A stretch of 64,000 nt of DNA from Nitrospirota bacterium (GCA_963790205.1 CAWBNQ010000001.1:1120001-1184000), one strand, 5' to 3'; counted from the stretch's first letter, positions 3 through 19,440 are shown. The notes: a model not told the origin generated them from the letters alone. Translations and numbers: made by a program.

Positions 3-2645
3 ACAATAATAGCGTACACAAGCACATCCGTTACCGCAGTTTTCGGGATTGCGGGTCTTGCAGCCTGGTGGCTCGTTCATCCGCGCTCCGACAGTCTTTT
101 GATGGCCCCGGCAACGGCCGTGTCGTTCATGATGCTGGGCAGTGCCTTGCTGCTCAAGGCCGGAGGGGGCAGCCGTCCTTTCGTTCGGCAGTCGGCCCGG
201 GGCATTACGATCGCGGTGACCTTCTTTTCCATCCTGGTCGTATTGCAGGCTGTCGCGGGCATCGTGCTCGGGATGGAAATATTCTTCCCCCGCGCCGATG
301 GAGCTTCCCCGCAGGTTCCGATCGACCGCATGCACGCTGTTACCGCCGCAATTTTTTCATTGTCAGGGCTTTCCGCCATACCGCTTTTTTTCAAGAGCGT
401 CTCAAAAATCCCCATAAAATATGTCTCGGTTGCGATGTCCTCACTGTTGTTCACCGCAGGCGCTCTTCTTGCGGCTTCCTGCTGGGAGGGGACGCCGCTT
501 CTCTATAACGGCAACACCATATTGGTAAACTTGTCCACGGCGCTCGGCTTTCTCACGCTCGGGCTCGGAGTTCATTCATTGTCAGCCCTGCAGAGTCCCT
601 CCGAGAAGTGTGAAGACGACCTTGAACGCCATTCTCTGAGAAGAGAGCTTCCGGCGGTCCTCACTCTGAGTACTGGAATTGCCTTGGCTGTTGTATTCTT
701 CACCATTGTGCACCGGCTGGAATTTAAGGCAATTCAGAATGAATTCAACCGTGACACCGAAAACTTCTCGGTGGCGCTTGAGAGGGGTGTTGAAGGGAAA
801 CTGAACGCACTCCGCGACCTCGAGGGTTTTTACGGATCTTCCGCTCACGTGACAAGGGCCGCTTTCCATACCTATGTGAACAACGTATTATCGCACAATG
901 CCGGTATTTATGCTCTTCAATGGATGCCTCGCGTCGCGGGCGCAGAGCGAAGCGCCTACGAGGCCGCCGCGACCAGGAACGGTTTTTCACAATTCCGCTT
1001 TACGAAGCTGAACGCGCAAAGGCAGGTCGTCACTGCCGATGAGCGGGATGAGTACTTTCCCGTCTACTATACGGAGCCATACCGGGAAAACAGGATGACG
1101 CTCGGTCTGGACCTCGCATCGATTCCCGCCCGCAAGCTACTTCTCGATAAGGCACGGGATACGGGAGCGGCGGTAGCCACTGGCAGGCTCAGGTTGCTCC
1201 AGGAAAAAGGCGACAAATACGCCTTTCTCGCAATACAGCCCGTCTATCGCACTGGTTTGCCTCATTATACGCTTAAAGACCGTCGAAGGAATCTGATCGG
1301 CTTTGTTTCCGGAGTTTTTTATATCGGAGAACTGGCCGAAGCTGCATTAAAAGGAATTAATCTGGAAGGAATTAAAATCTCCCTGGTTGACGATTCCGCT
1401 CCGCCGGATGAGGCCGCGCTCTACTCAAATCTCACACAAGAGAATTCCGCAGGCAGCATTTTATACTTTCTCACAACACTGAATATCGCGGACCGAAAAT
1501 GGGCGGTGGAATTCTACCCGACAGATCAGTACCTGTCGGCGCATAAGACCCCCTACTCATGGGCGATTCTCGGCTGTGGGTTCGGTTTTACCATTCTGCT
1601 TACCTTATACGCTTCCAAGAGAGAACGATATGCTTCGGAAATCGAGCGATCAAACAAAATCATCGGAACTGTCCTGAACAGCATAGACGCAGCTATCTCT
1701 ATCATCGGTTCAAAAGATTTGAAGATACTGGCGTGCAACAAGGTGTTCATGCAAGAGGCAGGAGTGGAGGAGGAGATCGTTGGCAAGCCGTGCCACGAGG
1801 TGCTGTATAAGAGAGTACCAACCTGTCGCGAGGAATGCATCGTGAGACGCGCGATGGAAACAGGGGAGCATGCCGTCCGCGAGCATCTCCATTACACCCC
1901 TGACGGAGCAGAAAGACATCGCGAGGTCAGCGTTTTTCCGGTCAAAGACGCTACGGGAAGCGTGATACAGATAGTACATGTTTCACAGGACATAACCGAG
2001 CGCAAGCAGGTGGAGCAGGCGCGGCTTCAGGAGCAGGAAATGCGCCGGCTGTCCGCGGAACGGCAGGTCGTCGAAGCGCAGCTCCGTATCCTGCAGGCCC
2101 AGATAGAGCCCCATTTCCTGTTCAATACCCTTGCAAACATAGTCAGTCTTGTTGACAACGAACCGGCAGCCGCCAAGCAAATGCTCCAATATTTCACGAC
2201 CTATTTGCGCCAGTCGCTGCAGCAGTCCAGGAAGGACAGTTCCACGCTGGGCCAGGAGGCGGACCTGCTCAAGGGCTACCTCAGCATCTTCAAGCTGCGG
2301 CTCGGTCCGCGATTGCAATTCAAAATAGATATTCCCGAAGGATTGCGCGAATTGCCGGTCCCTCCGATGCTCTTGCAGCCTCTGGTGGAAAACTCGATTA
2401 TCCATGGCATCGAACCGAAGGTCGAGGGCGGCACGATAACAGTCGCGGCAGAAAGACATGAGACACTTCTTCGGCTGGTGATCTCGGACACCGGCCTTGG
2501 CTTCACGGACCTGGTAAAAGCGAACGGCATGGGCATCAATAATGTGAAATCGCGCCTCCAGGCGCTCTACGCAGATCGCGCCGGTCTTGTTCTCGACGAG
2601 AACACCCCCTGCGGTGTAACCGCGGTCCTTGAGGTGCCGTTATGA
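3..2645 (+). CDS. LytS/YehU-family sensor histidine kinase (TM helices, CHASE, PAS, His_kinase, HATPase); 5' end lies outside the window
   Basis: Frame is open from nt 3 (TIIAYTSTSVTAVFGIAG...). LytS H-box LQAQIEPHFLFNTL, N-box LQPLVENSIIHG, G-boxes DTGLG and GMGINNV. CHASE-like EYFPVYYTEPY...LGLDL. Confidence 0.9.
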   Translation, partial: TIIAYTSTSVTAVFGIAGLAAWWLVHPRSDSLLMAPATAVSFMMLGSALLLKAGGGSRPFVRQSARGITIAVTFFSILVVLQAVAGIVLGMEIFFPRADGASPQVPIDRMHAVTAAIFSLSGLSAIPLFFKSVSKIPIKYVSVAMSSLLFTAGALLAASCWEGTPLLYNGNTILVNLSTALGFLTLGLGVHSLSALQSPSEKCEDDLERHSLRRELPAVLTLSTGIALAVVFFTIVHRLEFKAIQNEFNRDTENFSVALERGVEGKLNALRDLEGFYGSSAHVTRAAFHTYVNNVLSHNAGIYALQWMPRVAGAERSAYEAAATRNGFSQFRFTKLNAQRQVVTADERDEYFPVYYTEPYRENRMTLGLDLASIPARKLLLDKARDTGAAVATGRLRLLQEKGDKYAFLAIQPVYRTGLPHYTLKDRRRNLIGFVSGVFYIGELAEAALKGINLEGIKISLVDDSAPPDEAALYSNLTQENSAGSILYFLTTLNIADRKWAVEFYPTDQYLSAHKTPYSWAILGCGFGFTILLTLYASKRERYASEIERSNKIIGTVLNSIDAAISIIGSKDLKILACNKVFMQEAGVEEEIVGKPCHEVLYKRVPTCREECIVRRAMETGEHAVREHLHYTPDGAERHREVSVFPVKDATGSVIQIVHVSQDITERKQVEQARLQEQEMRRLSAERQVVEAQLRILQAQIEPHFLFNTLANIVSLVDNEPAAAKQMLQYFTTYLRQSLQQSRKDSSTLGQEADLLKGYLSIFKLRLGPRLQFKIDIPEGLRELPVPPMLLQPLVENSIIHGIEPKVEGGTITVAAERHETLLRLVISDTGLGFTDLVKANGMGINNVKSRLQALYADRAGLVLDENTPCGVTAVLEVPL

Positions 2646-3397
2646 GCGTACGGGTTTTGATCGCCGATGATGAACCAAAACTGGCAAAGTATCTTGCCGA
2701 ACGTCTGGTCGCACTCTGGCCCGGCGTCGAAGTCTGCGACACCGCAGCAAACGGCGACGAAGCGCTCGCAAAAATACAGGAGCGGAAACCCGACGTGGCC
2801 TTCCTCGATATCAAGATGCCGGGGATGTCCGGGCTGGAGGTCGCCAGAAAGATCAGCCATCCCTGTCTGGTGGTCTTTGTGACGGCATACCATAAGTATG
2901 CCGTGGACGCATTCGAGGAGGAGGCAGTCGATTACCTGCTCAAACCGGTGAACGATGAGCGGCTCAAAAGGACGATAACCCGCATACAAGAACGCCAGGC
3001 CGGCAAGGGCGGGGACCGGAACCTGGAAACGCTCTTGTCCAAGCTCGCCCAGACGATGGAACGCAAGGATGATTATGTGCGCTACTTCCGCGCGACCTCG
3101 GGCAAGGTCACCCGCCTCATCTCCGCCAGCGACGTCCTCTTTATACGGGCACACTCGAAATATACGCTCGTTATTACGAAGGAAGGAGAGTTTTTGATGC
3201 GCCTTTCCCTGAGCCAGCTCATCAAGCAGCTCAATCCTGAACAGTTCTGGCAAATCCATCGTTCCACGATCGTAAACGCTTCCAAGGTCATTTCCGTAAT
3301 GCAAACAGGCCGCGAAGAGCACGTGCTCCGTATCTGTGATCATGAGGCACTTCTGCCGGTGAGCAGGTCGTTTCTCCATTTGTTTAAACAGATGTGA
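2642..3397 (+). CDS. LytTR-family response regulator
   Basis: REC motifs IADDE, FLDIKMPG, FVTAY, DYLLKP. LytTR domain FWQIHRSTIVN...VSRS. 4-nt overlap with the kinase. Confidence 0.95.
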   Translation: MSVRVLIADDEPKLAKYLAERLVALWPGVEVCDTAANGDEALAKIQERKPDVAFLDIKMPGMSGLEVARKISHPCLVVFVTAYHKYAVDAFEEEAVDYLLKPVNDERLKRTITRIQERQAGKGGDRNLETLLSKLAQTMERKDDYVRYFRATSGKVTRLISASDVLFIRAHSKYTLVITKEGEFLMRLSLSQLIKQLNPEQFWQIHRSTIVNASKVISVMQTGREEHVLRICDHEALLPVSRSFLHLFKQM

Positions 3398-3571: not shown

Positions 3572-3739
3572 ATTGTACCCATTCTAAAATAATCCATTTT
3601 GTGTGAAGGGGTTCAGATTTCCGTTTTTTGGTGCTATACTTAGCCCTATATACCAAGAGGTTGAATCCGTATGTTTGGCAAAAAAATGGTCAATGGTCAG
3701 ATGGGAAAGAAGATCAAAACGAAGACCGACAGTATGCTT

Positions 3740-3930
3740 ACAGGTATGTCTTCGACCATCCCTATGCAGTGGTCACCGATGCCTCGGGCAAGTTCTTCAT
3801 AAAAGATATCCCGCGGAGATCTATACTATCGAAGCCCGGCACGAGGCGCTGGGAAACGAAAAAATCGCCGACGTAAACATCGAAAGTGGAAAGCCATCAC
3901 CATAAGGCTGAAATATACCAAGAAACAATA
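3740..3930 (+). pseudogene. Frameshifted fragment paralogous to the C-terminus of the downstream cupredoxin-like gene
   Basis: YVFDHPYAVVTDASGKFFIKDIP / AEIYTIEARHEALGNEKIADVNIESGK in different frames aligns with ILDNPYGATTNAKGEFTIKDIPAGTYTVEAWHEALGKVKEANVKVESGK. Confidence 0.75.
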
Positions 3931-3954: not shown

Positions 3955-4671
3955 ATGATGCGAAAAGGTAGTATTTTTCTCAGTGTCTTTGCAGTAATGT
4001 TTTCTTTGTCCTCGGTTTCCTTTGCCTATGAAACAATCGAGGTCAAAAATGGAGGAAGCATTGAGGGAGTAGTGGAGTTTGCAGGAGCCAATGTTCCGAA
4101 GGACCCGATACTCCACCTCAGCTCGGAGACGAAATACTGCGGGAAAAGCCTTCCCGCGGAAAAATATATGATCAAGGACCGGAAGATCGAAAATGTGATC
4201 GTGTATCTCGTGGATGTCAAGTCCGGGAAGGCCGTTCCGACCACGCCCATCACCCTGACCAACATAAAATGCGCGTTTGAACCCCACGTTGCCGTGGGCT
4301 TCAAGGGTGGCAAGATCACCCAGCGGAACGATGATCCCATCTTCCACAATATCCATACCTATTTGAACGGAAGGACGATGTACAACATCGGTCTTCCTGA
4401 AAAAGGTTCTTCGGTCACGAAACCGCTGCTCCGGGACGGACTCTTGGAAGTGACCTGCGACAGCCATCCCTGGATGCACGGCTTCGTCCAGATACTCGAC
4501 AATCCCTATGGCGCAACCACCAATGCAAAAGGTGAATTTACGATCAAGGACATACCCGCCGGCACGTATACGGTTGAAGCCTGGCATGAAGCGCTGGGCA
4601 AAGTCAAGGAAGCGAACGTCAAGGTTGAAAGCGGAAAGACCACTAAGATCAAGATAGAATACAAAAAATAA
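3955..4671 (+). CDS. Secreted cupredoxin-like protein with carboxypeptidase-regulatory-like domain
   Basis: Signal peptide ending SFA-YE. FHNIH...CDSHPWM gives a His...Cys-x2-His-x2-Met type-1 copper ligand pattern. RBS AAGGAGG. Confidence 0.75.
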   Translation: MMRKGSIFLSVFAVMFSLSSVSFAYETIEVKNGGSIEGVVEFAGANVPKDPILHLSSETKYCGKSLPAEKYMIKDRKIENVIVYLVDVKSGKAVPTTPITLTNIKCAFEPHVAVGFKGGKITQRNDDPIFHNIHTYLNGRTMYNIGLPEKGSSVTKPLLRDGLLEVTCDSHPWMHGFVQILDNPYGATTNAKGEFTIKDIPAGTYTVEAWHEALGKVKEANVKVESGKTTKIKIEYKK

Positions 4672-4711
4672 AGGCGGTGCCATTCTAACAACTACATCTA
4701 AGGAGGAGGTC

Positions 4712-5974
4712 ATGAAAAAAGGAATTTTTTTATCGGTCCTGTCACTGCTGCTCGCTGTCATCCTGATGCCGCTCGAGTCCCAGGCTGTTCCATCCTATGC
4801 CCGGCAGGTCAAGAAGCCCTGCACCGCCTGCCACACCGTCTGGGGGAACCTGAACCAGTACGGCAGGCAGTTCAAGGTCAAGGCCTACACGGACGTGAGC
4901 CCCGACTGGGAGATGATCAACAAGGACAACATGAACCTGCCCGTGACCGCCCCGTTTTCCACGAGGGTCGTCATGGAGCCTCTGGTACATGAGAGCGGTC
5001 TCTCAACCCCGGGCTCGAGTGATGTAAACCAGGTCGCGATCTTCATGGCGGGCAGGGTTTTTGACTACGCCGGCATATTTACGAGCGCCGAGGCTGATGG
5101 TTTTGGCTCTACGGGCGGCACTTTTTCCATACCGACAGTTAAAGTGGCCTTCCAGTATCCGCTGGGAGAGGGGAATACCATCGGCCTGGTCTCCTTCGCA
5201 GGGCTTGCTGCGTCAGCAGACCCTTTTAACAGCATCGGGGGCAGGGACCGGGACCTGCTTTTTGATGACGGGACGCCCTTTATCCTGAACACCGGCTGGA
5301 CGTTCAACTTCTGGAGCCCGAACAACTTCGGTGAAGTTCTTCACGGTTATTTCATCGGGAACCGTCTCTATGCAGCCGTCGGCGTGATGAGAGGCGGAAG
5401 CGCAGGGGACGGTATCGGCGGCCTGGCGAATAATGATAAGTCGGACCCCAATGATATGTACTCGCGCATCGCCTGGGACCAGAAGCTTCCGAACGGCGCG
5501 GTCACCGTCGGGCTTGTTAACTATAACGGCACCCAGCGGATGCTTGACATCGCCGGTAACCCTGCGTACGATTCCAAGGTCAAGAGGACCTATGCCGACC
5601 TGTCGCTGGAGCAGAATTACGGAGAGGACCACCTCGTCGAAGTGCAGGCCATCTACGGAGGCGGCAAGGACGAGGACGCCTTCGGCAACAGCACGGACAG
5701 AAAGTTCAACGGCTCCTATCTTGAGGCCGATTATTATTATGACAGGACCTTCGGGGTGATCGGCGCCATCAACAACATCACCTATAAGGATGTCGTTCTC
5801 GGGGTCGACCCGAATCCGATGGATACGCAAAAGCAGTGGATGGCCGGTTTCAATTACCTGCCCTGGCTGAACACGAAATTAGCCCTTCAATTCAGCAGCA
5901 CCAAAACGACGCTTGTGGACGGCACGAGCTCGACCGACAGGATAAGCAAGGTCATTCTGGATCTGCTGTTCTAA
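4712..5974 (+). CDS. cyc2: Cyc2-like monoheme cytochrome c-porin fusion (outer membrane)
   Basis: Signal peptide, then AVPSYARQVKKPCTACHTVWGNLNQYGRQFKVKAY, matching the Cyc2 N-terminal pattern PxF/YARQ-x4-CxxCH...GRxFK. Beta-strand-rich remainder ending in Phe (DLLF). Confidence 0.75.
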   Translation: MKKGIFLSVLSLLLAVILMPLESQAVPSYARQVKKPCTACHTVWGNLNQYGRQFKVKAYTDVSPDWEMINKDNMNLPVTAPFSTRVVMEPLVHESGLSTPGSSDVNQVAIFMAGRVFDYAGIFTSAEADGFGSTGGTFSIPTVKVAFQYPLGEGNTIGLVSFAGLAASADPFNSIGGRDRDLLFDDGTPFILNTGWTFNFWSPNNFGEVLHGYFIGNRLYAAVGVMRGGSAGDGIGGLANNDKSDPNDMYSRIAWDQKLPNGAVTVGLVNYNGTQRMLDIAGNPAYDSKVKRTYADLSLEQNYGEDHLVEVQAIYGGGKDEDAFGNSTDRKFNGSYLEADYYYDRTFGVIGAINNITYKDVVLGVDPNPMDTQKQWMAGFNYLPWLNTKLALQFSSTKTTLVDGTSSTDRISKVILDLLF

Positions 5975-5985
5975 CATTTATGTGA

Positions 5986-6020
5986 GCCCCCCGGGGGACG
6001 GACCCGCCCCCCGGGGTTTC
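5986..6020 (+). terminator. GC-rich intercistronic hairpin (terminator or mRNA stabiliser)
   Basis: ccccggggg-acggacccgc-cccccgggg followed by ttt. Confidence 0.55.
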
Positions 6021-6043
6021 CCCTACAAAAGCAGGAGGTAGCG

Positions 6044-7789
6044 ATGGCGGAAGCCGGCGTAAGCAAGGGCATCCTCAAAGGCATTATAAAGTTTACTGCC
6101 ATACTCGGCGCAGGGTTCGTACTCCTTGCCGTATTGAAAAAAGTGCTGCCCCTGCCCACGGAAGACGGGTACCGGTTTTTCCCCCTGATCGGCAGCAGGG
6201 ACTGGATCTGGATCGTGGCCCAGCTCCACTTGAATTTTGCCGCTTTTGTCCTCGGGGTCCCCATCTTCGCCGTGACCATGGAGTACCTCGGATGGAAAAA
6301 GGGAGAAGCGAGACTGGACCGGATCGCTTATGATTTCACCAAGCTCTTCACGCTCGCCTATACCGTGACGGCGGTGCTGGGCTCGGTCTTCCTCGTGAGC
6401 CTTCCGCTCCTCTACCCGAAATTCATCGATTACATGATGAAGATCCTCGGGCCCACTTGGTGGCTGTACCTCATCGTGATGTATGGCGAGGTGTTTGTCT
6501 GCTATTATTATTTCTATTCCTGGCAAAAAATGAAGGGCCGGAAGGGCCTGCATGTGCTCCTGGGCGTGCTGTTAAACGTCCTGGGCGCGACGCTTTTGTT
6601 GATCACGAGCGCCTGGGTCGGGTTCATGACTACCCCGGCCGGCGTGAGCCCGGACGGCGAGCTTTTGAGCAGGTGGGCCGCGATCCATACGCACATGTGG
6701 ATCCCTCTGTTCCTGCACCGGTTCGTGGCCAATATCGTGTTCGGGGCCGGCATCGCGGCGGCCTATGCCGCGTTCCGGTTCATTACGGCCAGGACGCCCG
6801 AAGAAAAGGCGTACTATGACTGGATGGGATACACCTCCGCGATCATCTCGATCGGGGCCTCTCTTCTGCTTCCCGGAGTCGGCTATCTTCTCGGCGTTGA
6901 AATTTATTCCTTCAACGAGCAGATGGGTATCCAGCTTATGGGCGGGTTCTTTGCGTGGCTCTGGGTCATGCAGGCGATCATGATCGGGGCGATCCTGTTT
7001 TTTATCAACTATTATCTCTGGATATCGCTCCAGAAGATGCCGGGCGGGGAGCGGTATTACAAGTACGTGAAATTCCTGTTCATCGTTCTTCTTCTCGGAT
7101 ACGCCGTATGGATCACGCCGCACGACGTGGCGCTGAGCCTGGAAGAGGCGCGGCGCACGGGCACGTACCACCCGGCCCTCGGGAAACTCGGCGTGATGGC
7201 GGCCAAGAATACGGCGGTCATCCTGTCCTACCTCGCGACATTCCTGAGCTTCGCCATTTTCCGGATGAGCAATAAGGAACCGACCGTGTCCTGGGCAAAG
7301 ACCGGTCACCGGGCGCGCGCGATCATCATAGTCGTCTCGGCCGCGGGCGTGCTGGCGCTCGGCATCTACAGCTACCTGGTTCCGGCCGCGGTACGGGTGA
7401 AGGTGCTTTCGCCCATCCAGTTCGGACTCTTCTTTGTCGGCCTTGCCGCACTCTACATCCTGGACAACTACATGTACAAGGGCGCGAAGATAATCGGTGA
7501 GCCGCGGTGGGGCAGGATGCCAGAGCGGTCGCAGTATGCGCTCATCGCGATCACCGTGACCTTTACCTGGCTCATGGGGATGCTGGGCTACATGAGGGCG
7601 GGCGCCAGGCAGTACTGGCATGTGTACGGGATCATGAAGAACACGAGCCCCGACGCCTTTCTGCCCACCCACGGCTATGCATCGGTCGTGGTCACGATCG
7701 TAACGTTGCTCTTCTTTGTGCTCATCTCCCTGGTGTTCTGGAGCATCATGAAGCTCGAGCAAGTCGCTGAAAAAAGGAGGGGGCACTGA
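6044..7789 (+). CDS. Cytochrome bd-like oxidase subunit I (CydA-like, Nitrospira/anammox-type, OR-N-like)
   Basis: Polytopic membrane protein. QLHLNFAAFVLG (heme b595 His region), LFLHRFVANI (b558 His region), GYMRAGARQYW (GRQPW-like). No cydB nearby. Confidence 0.8.
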   Translation: MAEAGVSKGILKGIIKFTAILGAGFVLLAVLKKVLPLPTEDGYRFFPLIGSRDWIWIVAQLHLNFAAFVLGVPIFAVTMEYLGWKKGEARLDRIAYDFTKLFTLAYTVTAVLGSVFLVSLPLLYPKFIDYMMKILGPTWWLYLIVMYGEVFVCYYYFYSWQKMKGRKGLHVLLGVLLNVLGATLLLITSAWVGFMTTPAGVSPDGELLSRWAAIHTHMWIPLFLHRFVANIVFGAGIAAAYAAFRFITARTPEEKAYYDWMGYTSAIISIGASLLLPGVGYLLGVEIYSFNEQMGIQLMGGFFAWLWVMQAIMIGAILFFINYYLWISLQKMPGGERYYKYVKFLFIVLLLGYAVWITPHDVALSLEEARRTGTYHPALGKLGVMAAKNTAVILSYLATFLSFAIFRMSNKEPTVSWAKTGHRARAIIIVVSAAGVLALGIYSYLVPAAVRVKVLSPIQFGLFFVGLAALYILDNYMYKGAKIIGEPRWGRMPERSQYALIAITVTFTWLMGMLGYMRAGARQYWHVYGIMKNTSPDAFLPTHGYASVVVTIVTLLFFVLISLVFWSIMKLEQVAEKRRGH

Positions 7790-8304
7790 TGAAAAAAGGC
7801 ATCCTGAAGCTCGCGGGCATCATCGTGGGCCTGAACTTCTTGTTCATGTACATCGGCCTCGAATTTCTGCCCCAGTCCGAGTCCCGGCCGCCGAAGGTCA
7901 TCAAGATCGAGGAAGGCATCTCCCAGGACGATCTCATCCATGTGGGTGAAGAGATCGTGTTCGGGAAAGGCCAGTGCATGGTCTGTCATCCGGTAAAACC
8001 GGAAGCGGGCATGAGGGCCCCGGCAATGTCCACCATCGGGGCGGAGATCGAAAAGGAGGCGAAGGAGCGGGGGATCACACCGGAAGAGCATGCCTTCGAG
8101 GCGCTCGTGAACCCGTCCAAATACATCGTGAAGGGCTTCGAAGACATCATGTCGCCCGTGCACACGCCCCCGACGTCCTTGACCGACGGAGAGATCATCG
8201 CGGTGGTCGCTTATCTGCAGAGCCAGGGTGGAAAAGTGACGGTATCCTATCCCGGGTCCGTTCCGGTCCTGAAAGACCAGATATCGAAAGCAGGAGGGAA
8301 GTAA
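7789..8304 (+). CDS. Membrane-anchored monoheme cytochrome c
   Basis: N-terminal TM helix, CMVCH, downstream Met candidates. Confidence 0.85.
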   Translation: MKKGILKLAGIIVGLNFLFMYIGLEFLPQSESRPPKVIKIEEGISQDDLIHVGEEIVFGKGQCMVCHPVKPEAGMRAPAMSTIGAEIEKEAKERGITPEEHAFEALVNPSKYIVKGFEDIMSPVHTPPTSLTDGEIIAVVAYLQSQGGKVTVSYPGSVPVLKDQISKAGGK

Positions 8305-8305
8305 G

Positions 8306-9109
8306 ATGCAATTCATATTTCCCATCATCACCATACTGGGCGTGGCGATCGCGATCGCCTCCAGCCGGAAAAGCGCCCCGTTCTTTCAGTTCATCGGCAT
8401 CCTTGCCGCCATCTACGCCGGATTAAAGAGCGTGTCGCTCGTGATGCCCCCGCTGCCGGGGCAGGTCGTCCACATGTTCATGATCATGTCCTTTTTTTCG
8501 TTCCTCGTCTATTTCTCGATCCAGGACGAAACGCTCAAGGCCTTTCTCGAGCCCATGCGGGCGGTGCTTGCCGACGACGACAAAAAAATCCCGAGGATCG
8601 TCATCGTCTACATCCTCATCCCCGTGCTGGCCGGATATTTCACCTACGCCGCGGTAAAGCCCGCCTTTGAACCGCCGCTCTCGCCGAGGATCACGCATCC
8701 CGAGCCGCCGTCGCAGATCGACTTCAAAGGAAATACCATAAATATTCTCGGACTGGAAAACCCCTTGCGCAAGGATACGGCCAATTTCACGGCTAATGTA
8801 CAAGAGGGGAAAGTCATTTACTTTCAGAACTGCTTCTTCTGCCACGGCGCAGACCTCGACGGGCGGGGACAGTTCGCCCAGGCGTTCAACCCGCCGCCCC
8901 CTCCCTTCCGGGGCACGGATACGATCGCGCAATTGCCGGAGTCGTATGTTTTCTGGCGCATTGCAAAAGGATGGAGGGGCCTTCCGCCGGGCGCGACCCC
9001 GTGGGATTCAGCCATGCCCTCATTCGAGGATATGCTGACCCAGGATCAAATATGGAAGGCAATTCTCTACATTTACGACGCTACCGGCAACAAACCGAGG
9101 ACGTGGTGA
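8306..9109 (+). CDS. Multi-pass membrane monoheme cytochrome c
   Basis: About 4 hydrophobic segments, then CFFCHG...SAMPSF. Confidence 0.85.
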   Translation: MQFIFPIITILGVAIAIASSRKSAPFFQFIGILAAIYAGLKSVSLVMPPLPGQVVHMFMIMSFFSFLVYFSIQDETLKAFLEPMRAVLADDDKKIPRIVIVYILIPVLAGYFTYAAVKPAFEPPLSPRITHPEPPSQIDFKGNTINILGLENPLRKDTANFTANVQEGKVIYFQNCFFCHGADLDGRGQFAQAFNPPPPPFRGTDTIAQLPESYVFWRIAKGWRGLPPGATPWDSAMPSFEDMLTQDQIWKAILYIYDATGNKPRTW

Positions 9110-9131
9110 CATGCGAAAGGGAGATTTTACC

Positions 9132-10559
9132 ATGAGGCTGCTTATAGCCATTATCCTGCTGGCGTTAATTCCCATTGCCGCTTTCCCCGAAGAGAAGGGA
9201 AAGGCCATCTATGACCAGTGGTGCTCGTCGTGCCACGGCGAAAAAGGGGACGGGAAGGGCCCTGCTGCCGATTTCGTGTGGCCGAAACCGAGAGACTTTA
9301 CCAAAGGTACGTTCAAGTTCAAATCGACCGGGTCCGGCGAGCCTCCCCTCGATTCTGACATCATGCGCACGATCCGGGAGGGGAACCCCGGCACCTCGAT
9401 GCCGGCTTGGAAGCGGTTCAGCGATGACGAGGTAAAGTCGCTGGTGGCGTATATCAAAGCGTTTTCGCCCGATACCTTTTCGATACAGGGCACCCCTTTC
9501 AAGATCGGAAGCCCTTCGGGCAGCAAAGACAAGATGACGGCACTGGGGAAGGAGATGTACCAGACCGCGAAGTGCTGGGAATGCCACGGCAAGGCGGGAA
9601 GGGGCGACGGCGAGAAGGGCTGGCAGGAAAAGTTCAAGGACGATTGGGGGAACAGGATCTATCCCGCCGACCAGACCCACCCCTGGGAATACCGGGCCGG
9701 CAGCGATCTGAAGGACGTGTTCAAGACGATTTCCGTGGGTTTTGATGGAACGCCCATGACCTCCTACGGGGACACGGTCCCGGATGAGAAAAGATGGGCC
9801 CTTGCGTATTACGTGCTGTCGCAGCAGCAGATAAGGAACCTCGGCCCGGCATTGCGGGTAAAGAAGGTGAAAGACCTCCCCGCTGCAACGGACGACCCGG
9901 TCTGGAAGAGCGTGGACTACCTCGACCTTCCGATGGCCGGGCAGGTGATCTTCGACCCGCGTGATTTTACGGCCCTCATAACGAACGCGAGGGTGCGCGG
10001 CGTCTACACCGGTTCGGAGCTGGCGGTGATGGTCGAATGGACCGACAAGCAGCAGAATCCGGCCAAGGGCGACGGCAGCCTCCCTCCTGATGCCGCGCGC
10101 ATACAGTTCCCCACGAAGATGACGGAAGGCGCCCGGCCGTATTTTTTCATGGGAGACAAGAAACTCGGGGTCAACGTCTGGCAGTGGAAGGCATCGGACA
10201 ATCTCGCGAACGAATTCATCGCAGCGGGACCGGATGAGGTCACGCAGCAGGAAAAACAGGATGTAAAGGTCGTTCCAACATATACCGAGGGGCAATACAG
10301 GATTCTCTTCACGAGGCCGCTCAATACGGGCGACGAGAAACATACGGTCTTCGAGATCGGAAAGTTCATGCCTTTTTCAGTTACCCTGTATGACGGCAGG
10401 AATCATGAGGCGGACAAGAAGGGCGCGATCTCCGCGTGGTACTATATGATGCTGGAACCCCCGACGCCGGCAACCGTGTATATTTTCCCGCCGATAGTAT
10501 TCTTGATTTTCCTGGGAATCGGGCTGCTGCTGCATAAAACAGTGAAGAACAGAGAATAG
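9132..10559 (+). CDS. Diheme cytochrome c fused to an ethylbenzene-dehydrogenase gamma-like (heme b, NxrC-like) domain, C-terminal TM anchor
   Basis: CSSCHG and CWECHG, PKPRDFT, GTSMPAW. C-terminal domain with EWTD...DAARIQFP...FFMGD...WQWKA. Signal peptide from ATG 9132 (upstream ATG at 9111). Confidence 0.8.
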   Translation: MRLLIAIILLALIPIAAFPEEKGKAIYDQWCSSCHGEKGDGKGPAADFVWPKPRDFTKGTFKFKSTGSGEPPLDSDIMRTIREGNPGTSMPAWKRFSDDEVKSLVAYIKAFSPDTFSIQGTPFKIGSPSGSKDKMTALGKEMYQTAKCWECHGKAGRGDGEKGWQEKFKDDWGNRIYPADQTHPWEYRAGSDLKDVFKTISVGFDGTPMTSYGDTVPDEKRWALAYYVLSQQQIRNLGPALRVKKVKDLPAATDDPVWKSVDYLDLPMAGQVIFDPRDFTALITNARVRGVYTGSELAVMVEWTDKQQNPAKGDGSLPPDAARIQFPTKMTEGARPYFFMGDKKLGVNVWQWKASDNLANEFIAAGPDEVTQQEKQDVKVVPTYTEGQYRILFTRPLNTGDEKHTVFEIGKFMPFSVTLYDGRNHEADKKGAISAWYYMMLEPPTPATVYIFPPIVFLIFLGIGLLLHKTVKNRE

Positions 10560-10569
10560 GCGCGGTAAT

Positions 10570-11565
10570 ATGTATAAAAAAATATTCATTCCCATCGATA
10601 ATTCGAAATATTCCCGTTTTTGCACGGACATCGGCGTGTCCCTGGCAGCGCGGTTCGGCTCGGAACTGACCGGCAGCCACGTGTACAGCGCGGCGCTGCA
10701 CGACAAGCGGTTCCGGGACATGGAGGTGGGACTTCCCGGGCACTACCAGGAGGAAGAAAGGCTGAAGAAATCAAGACAGGTCCATGATTCCCTGATCGGG
10801 GACGGCCTTAAGATGATCTCGGACGCCTATCTCGAATCCTTTAAAAAGGAATGCCGGGATTCCGCGGTGCCTTTCAACTGTAAAATGATGGAGGGGAAGA
10901 ACTGGTCGGAGCTCGTAAAAGATGTTCGAAGCAGCGGGTATGATCTGGTGATCATGGGGATCCTCGGCCTGGGTGCGATGAACGGCAACCTCATTGGAAG
11001 CGTGTGCGAACGGGTCGTGCGAAAAGTTGACGCCGACATCCTGGTGATTAAAAACGGCGCGCCTCTGAGCGGCAGACTGGTCGTGGCGATCGACGGGAGC
11101 GATCATTCCTTTTCCGCTTTGAAAAAAGCGCTGGCCCTCTGCAAGCGATTTCATGCGAAGATCGAAGCCGTATCCGTCTACGACCCCTATTTTCACCGGC
11201 GTGCTTTTCAGGCGCTTGTGGGGGTGCTTTCCGACGAAGCGGGAAAGATGTTTCGGTTCAAGGAGCAGGAAAAGCTCCACGATGAGATCATAGACGACGG
11301 GTTGGGCAAAATATACCAGGGCTACCTTGAACAAGCCGTTCAGATGGGGTCCGCTGAAGGGGTAGCAGTGAAAAGCACCCTTCTCGCAGGAAAGGCTTAT
11401 GACGAAATACATAAGCACCTGGAAAAAGATCCGCCGTCTCTTCTCATCGTAAGCCGCTTCGGCGCCCACAGGACCGACGAACAGGACATCGGCAATACCG
11501 CGGAGAACCTGCTCCGCCTCGCGCCGTGCAATCTGCTCATCACCGGCAGTTCTCATGCTGAGTAG
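10570..11565 (+). CDS. Tandem universal stress protein (2 x Usp)
   Basis: YKKIFIPIDNS, GSVCERVVR, LVVAIDGS, IGNTAENLLRLAPC. Confidence 0.9.
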   Translation: MYKKIFIPIDNSKYSRFCTDIGVSLAARFGSELTGSHVYSAALHDKRFRDMEVGLPGHYQEEERLKKSRQVHDSLIGDGLKMISDAYLESFKKECRDSAVPFNCKMMEGKNWSELVKDVRSSGYDLVIMGILGLGAMNGNLIGSVCERVVRKVDADILVIKNGAPLSGRLVVAIDGSDHSFSALKKALALCKRFHAKIEAVSVYDPYFHRRAFQALVGVLSDEAGKMFRFKEQEKLHDEIIDDGLGKIYQGYLEQAVQMGSAEGVAVKSTLLAGKAYDEIHKHLEKDPPSLLIVSRFGAHRTDEQDIGNTAENLLRLAPCNLLITGSSHAE

Positions 11566-11666
11566 CTCCTGACCGGATGCTGGAAAAAACCTCGCCCCCA
11601 AAGGAGATTATGCCGGCTGCTCTTCCCTCCGCGTCCTCTGCGAGCCCTGTGGCACATAGGTTTTTT

Positions 11667-12941
11667 ATGAACGACCTTCACGTCATATCCTGGAACGTTA
11701 CCAGGCGGTGCAATCTCGAATGCGCCCACTGCTACCTTCCCGCGACCACCAGAAAAGAGCGTCCCGGACTCTCATCCGCAGACGAACTCACCACGCAGGA
11801 GGCCTTTCAGCTTATCGACCGGATCGCATCCGTCAATCCCGAGGTCATGCTGATCCTTTCCGGGGGCGAGCCCCTCCTGCGGGAGGACATTTTTGAGCTG
11901 TCGACGTATGCATCGGGCAAGGGAATGATGGTCGTTTTGGGGTCCAACGGCCTCCTTATCAATGAAGCCGCGGCCCGCATGATGAAACAGAGCGGGGTGT
12001 CCGGGATAAGCATCAGTCTCGATTCCGTCAACCCCGAAATTCACGATGCCGTTCGCTCGCACACGGGCGCGTGGGAAAAGGCGGTTTCGGCAATCACGAT
12101 CTGTAAAAAGGAAGGGCTGTCAGTCCAGATCAATACGGTCGTTACCGGAAAGAACCATGACGAGCTGCCGCAATTGATCGCCTATGCCCGCGACCTCGGG
12201 GCGAAGGTCTTCAGTCCTTTTTTCCTGGTCTGCACCGGCAGGGGAGAAGAGATGACGGACCTCTCTCCGCTGCAATATGAAAAAGTCCTGTCGTTGATCG
12301 CCGAAGCGCAGGAGAAGCGCGATGATATCATGATACGGACACGGTGCGCACCCACGGTAAGACGGATCCTGCATCAGAAAAAACCCGGGTCGCGTCTTCT
12401 CACGATGGGCGCGGGCCGCTGTCTTGCGGGACGATCCTATTGCAGGATCACGCCCGAAGGGGACGTTACCCCTTGCCCGTATTTGCCCCTTTCAACGGGG
12501 AATATCCGGGAGCAGGACTTCGGCGACATCTGGCAAAATTCCGCGGTCTTTAATTCCCTGAGAAACCCCTCGCTCAAGGGCAAATGCAAAAAATGCGCAT
12601 ACCGGCTTCTCTGCGGCGGCTGCAGGGCGAGGGCGTACGCCGCCGGTCATAACGATTACCTGGGAGAAGATCCGTGGTGCGACTACCTGCCTCAAGGAGG
12701 AACTGTGATAAAATCGCCGACCTTTGAAACGAATGCGGAAGCAGCAGAGTCCGCGACATCAACACCCCTCTGGACCGCAGAGGCGGAGGAGCGCCTGAAA
12801 AAGGTCCCCTCGTTCGTCCGAAATATGGTGCGAGGCGCCGTCGTGCGCTATGCGGTCGAACATAAATGCCGGGAAATCACCCCGCAATTGATGGATGAAG
12901 TCCGGAAAAAGTCAGGAATGGGAGGAATGCATGGACATTGA
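11667..12941 (+). CDS. Radical SAM/SPASM protein (AhbD/NirJ-like) with C-terminal PCP_red-like domain
   Basis: CNLECAHC, SGGEP, SPASM cysteines (CLAG, PCPY, CKKC, CGGC). Tail WTAEAEERLKKVPSFVR. Start could be 11577. Confidence 0.85.
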   Translation: MNDLHVISWNVTRRCNLECAHCYLPATTRKERPGLSSADELTTQEAFQLIDRIASVNPEVMLILSGGEPLLREDIFELSTYASGKGMMVVLGSNGLLINEAAARMMKQSGVSGISISLDSVNPEIHDAVRSHTGAWEKAVSAITICKKEGLSVQINTVVTGKNHDELPQLIAYARDLGAKVFSPFFLVCTGRGEEMTDLSPLQYEKVLSLIAEAQEKRDDIMIRTRCAPTVRRILHQKKPGSRLLTMGAGRCLAGRSYCRITPEGDVTPCPYLPLSTGNIREQDFGDIWQNSAVFNSLRNPSLKGKCKKCAYRLLCGGCRARAYAAGHNDYLGEDPWCDYLPQGGTVIKSPTFETNAEAAESATSTPLWTAEAEERLKKVPSFVRNMVRGAVVRYAVEHKCREITPQLMDEVRKKSGMGGMHGH

Positions 12942-13212
12942 CGGTCTCTTAACAGAACAGGAAAAAACGTTTTTCCACCGAGTGGCAAAGCGGAAAATGC
13001 TTTTCCTGGCGTCAAGCATTGCGACGGTCGTCGTTGCCGCATCAATCCTTGTATATCACGGCCTGGTCGCTCACGACATGAACGACCTCCGGTTCGCCAT
13101 CATAATCATCCTCCTGCTCTCCGGCCGCGCATATATGAGGCTTTATAAGAGCGCCGTGATCTTCAGCAAGCTGAAACCCGGGCCGGTCACAGAACAGTCG
13201 AAACACGTTTGA
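12931..13212 (+). CDS. Small two-TM hypothetical protein
   Basis: GGAGG RBS, overlaps the previous stop, two hydrophobic stretches. Confidence 0.6.
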   Translation: MDIDGLLTEQEKTFFHRVAKRKMLFLASSIATVVVAASILVYHGLVAHDMNDLRFAIIIILLLSGRAYMRLYKSAVIFSKLKPGPVTEQSKHV

Positions 13213-13356
13213 TGCATTCCTGAAAAGCACGTTTGCCACGGAGACACACCCTGCTGTTGCCAAAACGCGGGTGCAGGCAGAGACACGGGGTCCCTCTACA
13301 GATTCCCCGCGCTCTCTTCTCGCCGCCGCCCGCTGTAAAATTCTATCAGAGCAACA

Positions 13357-13806
13357 ATGATGAGAAAGCCGATCATAGCCATAGTGGCAGTTTCGCTCGT
13401 CATCGCCGGCGTCTATTATCTTCACCGCGGTCCAAGCGCGGTGCCGGACGATAAGAAGGGAAAGATAGAAAAATTCATAAGAGCACTGGCTGCCGATACC
13501 TTGGAACAGGATTACCGAAGTCACGGCATCACTATTACTGTTCTGGTAACCAACGTAACGATCGACCGTATAACAAAAAAAGAAACAGAGCAGGACAATG
13601 TGTATTTTGCCCAGGGGAAAATCTCTTATATCATAAAAGGGAAACGAACGTGGCGGGACAAGGAGGGGAACCTTATACAGCTTGGACCCGAGCAGGAGAT
13701 CACCCACTGGTACACCTGCGGCGTTCTTGAAGACAGGTATCTCGGCGCTCTCTTCAAAGACGACAGAAATCGTCTCCAGTTTTACGCCGACAATCCCATG
13801 CAGTGA
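13357..13806 (+). CDS. Membrane-anchored hypothetical protein
   Basis: N-terminal TM helix followed by a soluble domain. Confidence 0.65.
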   Translation: MMRKPIIAIVAVSLVIAGVYYLHRGPSAVPDDKKGKIEKFIRALAADTLEQDYRSHGITITVLVTNVTIDRITKKETEQDNVYFAQGKISYIIKGKRTWRDKEGNLIQLGPEQEITHWYTCGVLEDRYLGALFKDDRNRLQFYADNPMQ

Positions 13807-13824: not shown

Positions 13825-13910
13825 GCAATCCGAAATCGCCAATCCGCAATCGAATAAATCCCCATCGAATTGCTTGACAAAAACAGGCCGTATACTATAA
13901 TCGATCAGAA
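13825..13910 (+). repeat. Copy 1 of an ~85-bp direct repeat carrying a TTGACA-N16-TATAAT promoter
   Basis: Matches 15731-15815 with 5 substitutions and 1 indel by eye. TTGACA at 13874, TATAAT at 13896. Confidence 0.9.
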
Positions 13911-13956
13911 CTACCCACGAAAGAAGAATTACTTTCCCCTGGATTTGAAAGTATTG

Positions 13957-14268
13957 ATGCTGGGAGAGCGAAAATTGCTGGTCCCGAATGCTGAAAAGGT
14001 GAACATCACAAGGGACACCCTCACCGTTGACTTGAGCGACGGAAGGACCATTTCCGTTCCGCTCGCATGGTTCCCTAGACTGCTCCATGCCACGAACCAG
14101 GAACGCAAGCATTGGAAGCTTATCGGCAAGGGGCAGGGCATCCACTGGGAGGACATCGACGAGGACATCAGCGTCGGAGGACTGCTTACGGGAAGGCCGT
14201 CAGGGGAAACGCAAGAATCTTTCAAGAAGTGGCTGGAGCGGCGACAAACCAAGCGCAGGGCGCATTGA
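13957..14268 (+). CDS. DUF2442-family protein (putative antitoxin)
   Basis: LTVDLSDGRTISVPLAWFPRLLHAT...GIHWEDIDEDISV. Confidence 0.85.
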   Translation: MLGERKLLVPNAEKVNITRDTLTVDLSDGRTISVPLAWFPRLLHATNQERKHWKLIGKGQGIHWEDIDEDISVGGLLTGRPSGETQESFKKWLERRQTKRRAH

Positions 14269-14292
14269 CGCAAGTCTGAGTCAGGTGAGACG

Positions 14293-14949
14293 ATGCTGCG
14301 ATTTCAAAGACCGCCGGATGCTGTGTTTCAGGCTATACTGCGCGATAGCATGGATTTTTCAATCGACTTTATCCATATTCTGATTGAGAATAACGAATAC
14401 GACGAGTCGCGCGCGAGAGAAGACATGAAGTCGGATTGCCCCGCGATGGCAAAAGTATTCACTCCGTCGCTTGCCCGGACCACGCTGCTGAAATTAAGAA
14501 AGTGTCTGGACAGGCCTGAAATATATTCTCTGAATAACTACCATTATCTCCTCCTCTTTGACGCAATTGCTTATTATGCCGACATACACAATGATATGAT
14601 TCCAATGGCGGAAAGCAGGGGAGAGAGAAAAGAAGCGTCCTTTGTGGACCCATTTTACATTGAAACAATTGACGTGGACGGCCTTCTTGGGTTGTATTTT
14701 TTTGACACGGATTTTTTAACCGACGCGGAAACGATGCTGAATGTTCCGGACTGGTTTAGAGCTTCATACAGCCCGGAAACGTTTGGTTTGTCTCTGGGAA
14801 TGTTGCCGCATGACGAGGAATTGGAACTGAAAATCGATACGGATGAAGATGCGGGCTTGTATAAGGTGACTCCGTCCGATTACTTCGGCCCGAAATCAAA
14901 GGTATATCCTGATTTTGATTATTGCCATGACCAGCATCCTGAAAAATAA
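14293..14949 (+). CDS. Acidic hypothetical protein
   Basis: 218-aa ORF with RBS-like AGGTGA. No recognised motif. Confidence 0.65.
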   Translation: MLRFQRPPDAVFQAILRDSMDFSIDFIHILIENNEYDESRAREDMKSDCPAMAKVFTPSLARTTLLKLRKCLDRPEIYSLNNYHYLLLFDAIAYYADIHNDMIPMAESRGERKEASFVDPFYIETIDVDGLLGLYFFDTDFLTDAETMLNVPDWFRASYSPETFGLSLGMLPHDEELELKIDTDEDAGLYKVTPSDYFGPKSKVYPDFDYCHDQHPEK

Positions 14950-15008
14950 AGCTCATGCGGCGTTTGGCCCCTTTAGAATCCTTTGACGATAAAGACCGCG
15001 CGCCCTTC

Positions 15009-15035
15009 TTGACAATATCATTTAAATGATATAAT
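15009..15035 (+). promoter_or_regulatory. TA promoter with perfect 18-bp palindromic operator
   Basis: TTGACA at 15009, ATATCATTTAAATGATAT palindrome at 15015-15032, TATAAT at 15030. Confidence 0.75.
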
Positions 15036-15063
15036 ATTGCGAATGCGGTAACAAGGAGGCCCC

Positions 15064-15336
15064 ATGCCGGTGATAAAACCCATTTCCGACCTGCGCAACA
15101 AGGCGAACGAGATCTCGGACCTCGCCCACAAGCTGAATGAACCCATCTTTATAACCAAAAACGGCGAGGGCGACATGGTCGTTATGTCCATGGCGCGATA
15201 CGCGCAGTTTCAGTTGAAGCTCGACCTTTTCAGCAAACTTGCCGTGGCCCAAAACCAGATCGCCTCCGGCGACAAGGGGAGAACGCTCAAGCAGGTCATG
15301 ACGGACCTCAGGAAAAGGCTTCATGAGCCCGCGTAA
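15064..15336 (+). CDS. Phd/YefM-family antitoxin
   Basis: IKPISDLRN...EPIFITKNGEGDMVVMS. Confidence 0.92.
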   Translation: MPVIKPISDLRNKANEISDLAHKLNEPIFITKNGEGDMVVMSMARYAQFQLKLDLFSKLAVAQNQIASGDKGRTLKQVMTDLRKRLHEPA

Positions 15337-15631
15337 GCTTGCGGTCAAGCTCCTCAGGATCGCGGAAGACGATCTCGCCGAAATCATCACGTTTATTGCG
15401 GAGGATGACATAGTCGCCGCCGAAAAGCTTGCCGACAAAATTGAGACCCGGCTTGCACGGCTCGCGGACCATCCCGCTCTTGGCAGAATCCCGGCTGAAG
15501 AGGAGCTCGCCCGGCTTGGCTACCGCTATCTTGTCGTTGACAATTATCTTGTTTTCTATACCGTGAGCGCACAGACAGTCCTTATCCACCGGGTCATTCA
15601 CGGCGCGAGAGACTACGTCAATCTGCTTTAG
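15323..15631 (+). CDS. RelE/ParE-family toxin
   Basis: AEDDLAEIITFIA...YRYLVVDNYLVFY...HRVIHGARDY. Overlaps the antitoxin gene. Confidence 0.92.
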   Translation: MSPRKLAVKLLRIAEDDLAEIITFIAEDDIVAAEKLADKIETRLARLADHPALGRIPAEEELARLGYRYLVVDNYLVFYTVSAQTVLIHRVIHGARDYVNLL

Positions 15632-15730
15632 CGGGGCGCTGGAAATATTCCGCATTCCGCATGACAGTCGTCTTGCGTTTGAGCTTCCTGCACTCTGAAC
15701 TCTGAACTTTGAACTGCAATTAGCCAATCT

Positions 15731-15815
15731 GCAATCCGAAATCGCCAATCCGCAATCGAATAAATCCCATCGAATCTCTTGACAAAAGCAGGCCGTGTAC
15801 TATAATCGACCAGAA
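15731..15815 (+). repeat. Copy 2 of the ~85-bp promoter-containing direct repeat
   Basis: TTGACA at 15779, TATAAT at 15801. Confidence 0.9.
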
Positions 15816-15835
15816 TTGCATTGGGAGGTAAGTTC

Positions 15836-16156: not shown

Positions 16157-16265
16157 GGAGTGAGCGCAACGCGTGCAACAACGGGTTGCCCCGATATACT
16201 TTTCTGAAATACACAACAGTTCATACTGAAGCTTGTGAATTACCTTTGATCAGGCTACAATTCTA

Positions 16266-19430: not shown

Positions 19431-19440
19431 ATTAGATGGT

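Follow-up and report, generated by a model that had tools for sequence, protein, structure and literature searches.

A stretch of 64,000 nucleotides from a Nitrospirota bacterium (GCA_963790205.1 CAWBNQ010000001.1:1120001-1184000, one strand; the window hereafter) carries a cluster in which a cupredoxin-like gene (g1) and a gene for the cytochrome-porin Cyc2 (g2) directly precede a cytochrome bd-like gene (g3) and three c-type cytochrome genes (g4-g6). The genes g3-g6 are the OR-N/TO_1 module known from Nitrospira, anammox bacteria and Manganitrophus, the complex of which has never been purified. The cluster is conserved; Cyc2 in Thermodesulfovibrionia and the module have each been published already, and no account of the two in a joint operon was found in the literature searched. 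As for its function, we tentatively propose that electrons from Fe(II) pass through Cyc2 and the cupredoxin to the module, which would serve as a membrane relay and not as an O2 reductase. The host is a Thermodesulfovibrionales-like member of Nitrospirota with a genome of 4.3 Mb that is 98% complete. The ten co-directional genes g1-g10 occupy window positions 3955..13806 on the + strand, and the features, in window coordinates, are as follows.

Cupredoxin-gene remnant, ~3730..3900, +: frameshifted C-terminal third of a cupredoxin gene, with tblastn matches in two frames
g1, 3955..4671, +: secreted protein of 238 amino acids (aa) with a type-1 copper motif; predicted periplasmic electron shuttle
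g2, 4712..5974, +: Cyc2 fused monohaem cytochrome-porin, 420 aa, probably of Cluster 2
GC-rich hairpin, 5989..6018, +: directly past the cyc2 stop codon
g3, 6044..7789, +: OR-N (probably OR-N2) cytochrome bd-like membrane protein, 581 aa, 14 helices
g4, 7789..8304, +: membrane-anchored monohaem cytochrome c; PF00034, one CxxCH, one hydrophobic helix
g5, 8306..9109, +: monohaem cytochrome c with 3-4 N-terminal membrane helices
g6, 9111..10559, +: dihaem c domain, EB_dh (EbdC/NxrC-like haem b) domain and C-terminal anchor; alt_NxrC_2 architecture
g7, 10570..11565, +: tandem-Usp protein; PF00582 twice
g8, 11577..12941, +: AhbD/NirJ-like radical SAM-SPASM enzyme with a PCP_red tail
g9, ~12943..13212, +: two-helix membrane protein of 89 aa; start codon provisional
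g10, 13357..13806, +: exported protein of 149 aa, loosely associated

The gaps from g1 through g9 are 40, 69, -1, 1, 1, 10, 11 and 1 nt (to 13212), and g10 starts 144 nt after the end of g9. The original prediction, made from the sequence of the window, had described closely spaced genes on one strand; all of them lie where it placed them on the + strand, the gaps among the first nine being -1 to 69 nt, and its haem counts agree with one CxxCH in g2 and then one, one and two in g4, g5 and g6. It lacked the EB_dh domain of g6, g9, the conserved hairpin and the cupredoxin remnant. The first nine genes form an operon-like unit and are presumably co-transcribed. A stem similar to the hairpin in the g2-g3 spacer was found in 11 of the 14 spacers folded and is missing from the short spacers of L069, L075 and L077; its core pattern occurs only twice in the whole 4.3-Mb host genome. 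This hairpin could stabilise or terminate a g1-g2 transcript. The promoter scan stayed at chance level (7 sites against 6.6 expected), and the terminator scan returned 18 sites against 11.8 expected, the hairpin past cyc2 not being among them.

We identify g2 as a Cyc2 from its haem motif, its modelled 16-strand porin and homology. PMC8406198 lists as marks of a Cyc2 a length of at least 365 aa, a signal peptide, a single CxxCH, the motif AXPXFAR[Q/K][T/Y] and a porin, and it describes the PXL motif as not exclusive to Cyc2. In g2, a signal-peptide-like hydrophobic stretch (residues 4-22) is followed by the sole CxxCH of the protein, CTACH at 37-41, and the upstream motif A-V-P-S-Y-A-R-Q-V stands at the correct spacing, with F replaced by Y and T by V; its close homologues carry F and T at both positions. 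At the PXL position g2 reads G-N-L, the consensus of 115 homologues being P-N-L, and the protein ends in a C-terminal Phe. The AlphaFold model has 16 strands over residues 82-418 with a predicted local distance difference test score (pLDDT) of 82, and the haem segment falls below 50. Fold searches returned Omp32, OmpF/C and similar general porins (E 3e-10 to 5e-7). There was no real match to g2 in Pfam or NCBIfam, and a Cyc2 profile found no solved structure by sequence.

With regard to subgroup, g2 is 54% identical to the protein of locus L068, whose cluster holds HAM50271 and which is the only Cyc2 match in its genome; in the tree g2 groups with the HAM50271 locus (SH-like approximate likelihood-ratio test, SH-aLRT, 97-99%). 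A Cluster 2-type Cyc2 is described as orthologous to a protein of the HAM50271 genome, with HAM50271 shown (PMC13647500), and the A. ferrooxidans Cyc2 also belongs to Cluster 2 (PMC7029218). By its identity to, and clade with, this locus g2 probably belongs to Cluster 2. The Cyc2-type barrel originally proposed for 4712-5974 is thus borne out by the 16-strand model, the porin fold matches and the clade with HAM50271. Each Cyc2 cluster has a tested member that oxidises Fe(II), and the function of much of Clusters 2 and 3 is described as uncertain (PMC8406198). The Thermodesulfovibrionia Cyc2 already published and tested is a Cluster 3 protein (PMC13647500), and Nitrospirota names are not among the entries of the Keffer supplements. 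By analogy with the tested members, Fe(II) would be the substrate of g2. The Cyc2-family profile found matches in 124 of 401 Nitrospirota genomes; the N-terminal motif accounts for most of them, with few strong full-length matches. A 318-aa host protein (G000:C5:191644-192597) has a Cyc2-like N-terminal motif and one haem; it is too short for a Cyc2 and matches the profile weakly (E 0.085).

The secreted protein g1 has the type-1 copper ligand set H131, C168-x2-H171-x2-M174, and these residues are kept in all 14 aligned close Cyc2-adjacent homologues, which upholds the copper motif noted originally and predicts copper binding by g1. Its C-terminus is a CarboxypepD_reg domain (PF13620). No cupredoxin family of Pfam was matched, and a search of PDB sequences at E<=1 gave only weak matches to a blue copper protein (E 0.009) and NirK; none was to rusticyanin, and this sequence search rules out g1 as a rusticyanin. 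Its Atlas neighbours include a 'Blue (Type 1) copper domain protein'. A g1 homologue lies directly upstream of Cyc2 in 20 of 21 loci, the remaining locus beginning at a contig edge, and directly upstream of g3 in all eight close modules that have no Cyc2. Since g1 precedes both Cyc2 and Cyc2-free modules, it is the natural shuttle between the two. The predicted complex of Cyc2 and g1 scored 0.08 and was given no weight for or against contact between them. The remnant at ~3730-3900 gave tblastn identities of 42-69% over 26-42 aa; its intact counterpart is a tandem paralogue ahead of g1 in L061, L065, L066, L075, L080 and L081, which reads C-Y-x-H-P-W-Q, with Gln in place of the axial Met, and carries a short insertion past the first His. 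Another intact cupredoxin-like paralogue lies on contig C6 of the host.

The g3 protein matches Cyt_bd_oxida_I (PF01654) only in part (residues 57-288, E 1.6e-15). Its model shows 14 long helices (pLDDT 86; hydropathy gives 13), and the best ten fold matches are all CydA. The kept residues H62, E149, H170, H225, M385 and R522 include equivalents of His19, E107, H186, M393 and R448, the b558 ligands among them, and H62, the His19 equivalent, is invariant in 41 of 41 homologues. Changed positions are Y142 at E99, A519 at E445 and M294/M299 at K252/E257; His170, His526 and Tyr142 are invariant extra residues. The reference positions (His19, E107, H186, M393, R448, E99, E445, K252/E257) are those of E. 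coli CydA. No CydB gene adjoins g3, and no OR-N1 partner gene was found in the host genome with the queries used. A canonical CydA was rejected for g3, there being no CydB, no Q-loop K252/E257 and no E99/E445. The protein is 39-40% identical to three Nitrospiraceae paralogues. The bd-like family OR-N1/N2 is described as having 14 helices and having lost the quinol-loop residues (Murali et al., bioRxiv 2021.01.16.426971). Likewise, g3 has 14 helices, keeps His19, has no quinol-binding site and is encoded alongside c-cytochromes and a periplasmic cytochrome b; by these sequence features it fits the OR-N family, and its lone occurrence makes OR-N2 the probable subfamily. A second, distant CydA-like pair in the host (G000:C3:1050804-1053336, L117), one protein of which has a C-terminal CxxCH, resembles the OR-C type.

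In g6, two PF13442 domains, PF09459 (EB_dh) and TIGR03477 were matched, and the PDB matches are 6h5l_B, NXR-C 7b04_C and EbdC 2ivf_C. M349 and K439 stand at likely haem b ligand positions. The candidate assignment of g6 as the gamma subunit of a nitrite oxidoreductase (NXR) was rejected, since the queries used found nothing NarG/NxrB-like in the genome apart from generic matches to FeS and Fdh proteins. Haem binding by the module proteins is predicted from their motifs. The same layout as g3-g6 is described for TO_1 of Ca. Manganitrophus (bioRxiv 2021.11.15.468770) and for the bd-like_3/alt_NxrC_2 cluster of Nitrospira, Nitrospina and anammox bacteria (PMC6606698), and the Kuenenia nxr cluster (kustd1709-1712) has cydA, dihaem, monohaem, dihaem and uspA genes in matching order (PMC6423088).

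Synteny was assessed in 21 close Cyc2 loci from named genomes, four distant alphaproteobacterial loci (of 25) being excluded from the counts. The 21 are titled Nitrospirota, Nitrospiraceae, Thermodesulfovibrionales or Thermodesulfovibrionia, except for one Thermodesulfobacteriota. A g3 homologue lies directly past Cyc2 in 13 loci, is absent there in seven and is cut off in one; together with the g1-Cyc2 pairs in 20 of 21, this agrees with the synteny in relatives that the original prediction implied. Because gene order is conserved in relatives, the arrangement is not due to chance, and a chance arrangement is ruled out. Damage is seen in two of the 13 modules, with a split g3 in L066 and, in L076, a truncated g3 and no g5-g6. 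Within the family of the host the module is patchy, occurring in seven of 64 genomes (host included), all seven with Cyc2 directly upstream. In two loci where the module is absent (L072:2203-3873, L078:11272-13089), a methyl-accepting chemotaxis protein is encoded directly past Cyc2, possibly a link to metal- or redox-taxis. Octahaem or other multihaem cytochrome genes adjoin the cupredoxin-Cyc2 pair in L063, L065, L066 and L079, L063 also having a Rieske/cytochrome b pair.

The module also occurs elsewhere. Searching 401 Nitrospirota genomes with g3 at E<=1e-138 gave matches in 26. The eight closest Cyc2-free copies are 72-77% identical to g3; seven lie among nosR/D/F/Y genes and one ahead of heme-copper oxidase subunits. 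Six of the seven nos-linked copies are in family f18 (NCBI protein names Ca. Magnetobacterium, Magnetomonas) and one is in f23; a nosZ of the twin-arginine translocation (TAT) type is in view at six of these loci, and nosL lies just past g6 in at least five. Quick trees, with an approximately unbiased (AU) test on 19 of 41 rows for a group named after the first tree was seen, place the 13 Cyc2-linked g3 copies with the f23 nos-linked copy (SH-aLRT 96-99) and reject monophyly of the nos-linked copies (p-AU 0.004). In the phylum of L073, g3 matches in 16 of 301 genomes added 15 new loci, of which six show partners: clade III NosZ (two), Nar or NXR-like (two), cbb3 (one) and aa3 (one). The two NosZ cases (L257:11144-12907, L262:9050-10792) are clade III lactonase-type nitrous-oxide reductases adjoining the module, both above the NCBIfam cut-off.

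A metagenome sample added 69 loci from the best 80 of at least 676 confirmed stretches, many contigs being short. In 13 of them (including L160, L167 and L175) ActB and then ActE lie directly upstream of g3, and six have a heme-copper subunit I. None of the 69 gave a Cyc2 or NosZ match. At the 13 ActB-ActE loci no ActC match was found and actA, actD and actF were also absent from the locus, only two of the 13 showing more than 5 kb upstream of ActB; ActC is the quinol-site subunit of alternative complex III (ACIII). The joining of actB-actE to the bd-like module may possibly represent a hybrid ACIII.

The respiratory genes of the host bear on what the module could do. There is an A-type (aa3) oxidase above the CtaD cut-off, on another contig, and two CydAB; a NorBC-like pair is named from sequence, with no NCBIfam match at 1e-25. 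The genome also encodes an ACIII-like cluster, Rieske/cytochrome b genes, formate dehydrogenases, a NiFe hydrogenase, CO dehydrogenase, AcsB and dsr genes, of which the NiFe hydrogenase and AcsB were identified by motifs. With the queries used, no nosZ and no NarG/NxrA- or NxrB-type gene was found in it; Cyc2 is the only extracellular redox partner at the cluster, in line with the earlier suggestion that it is the entry point for electrons. A search for DsrD gave one of 64 family genomes above the cut-off, the host not being among those. Between dsrAB and dsrMKJOP there are small DsrE/H-like genes. A frameshift interrupts dsrA in this assembly (G000:C14:63709-64873, L118-L120), and CO dehydrogenase, actB and one petB gene are likewise split, which may be due to assembly indels. 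Several multihaem cytochrome clusters are present. The large one at G000:C3:288099-317919 encodes proteins of 4 to 13 haems, with a duplicated 8-haem protein of ~1080 aa and a possible outer-membrane partner, and is a candidate second extracellular electron route.

In the mechanism that we tentatively put forward, the Cyc2 porin would take electrons from dissolved Fe(II), which would go via the predicted blue-copper shuttle g1 to the haem chain g6-g5-g4, and this chain would hand them to g3, acting as their relay to the quinone chain of the membrane. From the copper protein the greater share of the electrons would go to the host aa3 oxidase or NO reductase, whose genes lie elsewhere, and the module would be the uphill branch, the counterpart of bc1 in Acidithiobacillus. 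With NosZ, Nar and oxidases such a relay would work in the forward direction, with NXR in reverse. It is slightly favoured because all partners of the module share a need for a link between a periplasmic high-potential carrier and quinone; the loss of the E99 and E445 equivalents from g3, and the three O2 reductases that the host already has (aa3 and two CydAB), also support it. For the bd-like_3/alt_NxrC_2 cluster type, reversed electron transfer into the quinone pool is a published proposal (PMC6606698).

Nearly as likely is the model of the original prediction, in which electrons from Fe(II) would reach g3 by the same carriers (Cyc2, cupredoxin, g6/g5/g4) and g3 would be a high-affinity, cytochrome c-fed O2 reductase, the whole being an analogue of the rus system. 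We regard it, too, as possible rather than probable. The CydA fold is kept along with the equivalents of His19, E107, H186, M393 and R448, and the invariant His170, His526 and Tyr142 could complete an active site. TO_1/OR-N is called a putative O2 reductase fed by cytochrome c (bioRxiv 2021.11.15.468770; bioRxiv 2021.01.16.426971; PMC10839748), and Nitrospira, which have no heme-copper oxidase, require an OR-N protein for O2 reduction (PMC6606698). A related Cyc2 pair beside cbb3 genes in L095 agrees with the model, and removal of O2 is a role that the module could have in nos operons. Against it, PMC10839748 describes O2 reduction by an OR-N protein as lacking experimental confirmation, and in PMC6606698 the terminal-oxidase label is a hypothesis. 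The loss of E99 and E445, the missing CydB and OR-N1 partner and the O2 reductases already present in the host count against it as well, and the nos, L-nosZ, nar/nxr and actBE contexts would each require a scavenging story of their own. Of the "CydA-like oxidase" originally proposed, the CydA fold stands; the terminal-oxidase role is not established, given the nos-linked relatives and the two lost glutamates.

A number of observations weigh against the relay. The canonical quinol-site residues K252/E257 are absent from g3, as in the whole OR-N family, so the relay must assume a new quinone site. The residues fitting O2 chemistry (His19, E107, the b558 ligands, R448) are kept, and g3 shares nearly all tabulated residues with a Nitrospiraceae paralogue that matches a proposed terminal oxidase by gene context. 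The Cyc2 pair in L095 (L095:1907-6717), a more distant cupredoxin-Cyc2 pair, adjoins cbb3-type oxidase genes and an Rrf2 regulator. The electron lift from Fe(II) to menaquinone is energetically steep. A strong COX1 match was found in all seven family carriers (one partial) and in three of three other carriers, but with COX1 in 62 of the 64 family genomes this finding does not set carriers apart. Among the genomes with a nos- or oxidase-linked module, five were tested: all five have heme-copper oxidases and all five have cytochrome b (petB-like) and NrfD genes, so these carriers do not depend on the module as their sole quinol link, and the absence of complex III expected under the relay idea was found in none of them (0/5). 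No partner of the kinds listed above is seen at nine of the 15 second-phylum loci or at most metagenome loci, and related loci are non-independent events.

The direction of flow could also be reversed; should the module be a relay, it could plausibly pass electrons outward to Fe(III). In the outward scheme, quinol from the oxidation of H2, formate or CO would feed the g3 module, and electrons would leave by the cupredoxin and Cyc2 to dissolved Fe(III). The Cyc2-linked clade arose among the closest relatives of the module, which work with enzymes that accept electrons (NosZ, heme-copper oxidase), and the host has the formate dehydrogenases, NiFe hydrogenase, CO dehydrogenase, AcsB and dsr genes listed above. 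In A. ferrooxidans, a route of terminal Fe(III) reduction through rusticyanin and Cyc2 has been put forward (PMC8790237). Inward flow is favoured because the Cyc2 assays described in PMC13647500 and PMC8406198 are of Fe(II) oxidation. Moreover, the separate multihaem cytochrome clusters of the host could carry out outward transfer, the cupredoxin-Cyc2 pair occurs without the module in seven of 21 loci, and this scheme needs an assumed quinone site as well; on balance we consider it unlikely. A bolder version, which we find slightly more doubtful still, would make the lone OR-N module a third quinone-to-periplasm oxidoreductase, after bc1 and ACIII, built on a CydA scaffold and supplied with haem by its own radical-SAM enzyme; formerly part of an N2O-reductase operon, it would in these Thermodesulfovibrionales make Cyc2 run in reverse, as the terminal reductase of Fe(III).

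Finally, the wire may be real and its substrate not iron (Mn(II), another metal, humic quinones or an electrode), or g3 may reduce NO. The uncertain function of much of Clusters 2 and 3 leaves room for this (PMC8406198), in Manganitrophaceae both Cyc2 and TO_1 count as candidates for Mn(II) oxidation (bioRxiv 2021.11.15.468770), and the module often sits among denitrification genes. No positive sign of another substrate was found, and other genes of the COX1/NorB family occur in the host and in those nos carriers that were tested, which makes this the least probable of the readings. The inward relay from Fe(II) keeps a narrow and tentative preference.

The accessory genes g7 and g8 are likely maturation factors for the module, g7 as a dedicated accessory and g8 in haem tailoring or supply. 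Orthologues of the g7 Usp protein were found in eight of the 64 family genomes, namely all seven module carriers and one 68%-complete genome; all five distant carriers have one Usp orthologue and a full-length g8 homologue, the two being adjoining in four and on the same contig in the fifth. Because Usp tracks the module carriers and a g8 homologue accompanies it in distant ones, the pair probably serves the module. The two Usp domains of g7 and the radical SAM, SPASM and PCP_red domains of g8 match the Usp and AhbD/NirJ-like genes first reported. For g8 the best NCBIfam scores are NirJ2 with 331.3 and AhbD with 324.7 bits, both below the 500-bit cut-off; from its domains it is a relative of AhbD/NirJ2 in a distinct subfamily with a PCP_red tail. 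Separate, shorter g8 paralogues elsewhere in the host are 37% and 30% identical to it. The small protein g9 has no Pfam or NCBIfam match and comes after g8 in L061, L062, L065, L066, L069, L075, L077 and L016. In relatives g10 is near the cluster in only three of 21 loci, at differing places and strands, and this loose attachment rules it out as a core member; an Atlas search with it gave no match at 0.9 or above.

Directly upstream of the cluster, a CHASE-PAS LytS-type kinase and a LytTR regulator (window 99-3397) are not conserved neighbours in relatives. Right past it, a region of lower GC (window 13870-23317) holds a DUF2442 gene, a Phd-ParE toxin-antitoxin pair, a DNA methyltransferase and an Mrr-helicase with seven helicase-associated repeats, and is likely a defence or mobile island.

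Expression of the 'bd-like oxidase' genes ranks among the highest in cells of Nitrospira, Nitrospina, anammox bacteria and Manganitrophus (bioRxiv 2021.11.15.468770; PMC6606698; PMC10839748), and the cluster offers a test of the real function of this widespread module. Within ~9 kb it unites the module and the genes that likely mature it with a carrier that is soluble and a redox partner that is easy to assay; with all parts so close together, O2 reduction and quinone relay could be told apart by one expression experiment. If the iron link is true, electron exchange with dissolved iron extends to some of the Thermodesulfovibrionales that carry dsr genes, and this would bear on iron cyclers at oxic-anoxic boundaries and on cyc2 as a marker gene. 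In the literature searched, with most subscription journals outside its coverage, no description was found of a module-nos link in Nitrospirota or, with the 2020 Manganitrophus paper also outside, of a joint Cyc2 and module operon.

Compared with TO_1/bd-like_3, the cluster has the same bd-like subunit, two c-cytochromes and dihaem/haem b protein in the same order, and g3 likewise has 14 helices without the quinol-loop residues, as in OR-N. The Usp gene is shared with the Kuenenia anammox cluster (PMC6423088). Different from TO_1/bd-like_3 as described in the papers cited here, Cyc2 is inserted between the cupredoxin-like and bd-like genes, and with the queries used no NXR or OR-N1 partner was found in the host genome. 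Like the Cyc2 of A. ferrooxidans, Mariprofundus Cyc2PV-1, Leptospirillum Cyt572 and 'Ca. Mariimomonas', g2 has a signal peptide, A-x-P-x-[FY]-A-R-Q and a single CxxCH, and it resembles known Cyc2 Fe(II) oxidases in its 16-strand porin and its length above 365 aa; it differs in having G-N-L rather than PxL past the haem motif. Whereas the tested Thermodesulfovibrionia Cyc2 is of Cluster 3, g2 is placed with the Cluster 2-type HAM50271, and its activity is only predicted. With canonical CydAB, g3 shares the fold and several haem and proton-path residues; it has no CydB, K252/E257, E99 or E445, and has five more helices and its own cytochrome c partners. The Acidithiobacillus rus operon has the layout cyc2, cyc1, coxBACD, rus; in contrast to it, the window cluster has no rusticyanin homologue and no heme-copper (aa3) oxidase genes, and its membrane complex is derived from CydA. 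What holds of the rus analogy drawn in the original prediction is the wiring logic, in which an outer-membrane Cyc2, a periplasmic blue copper carrier, c-type cytochromes and a membrane complex are joined in one cluster (PMC8790237).

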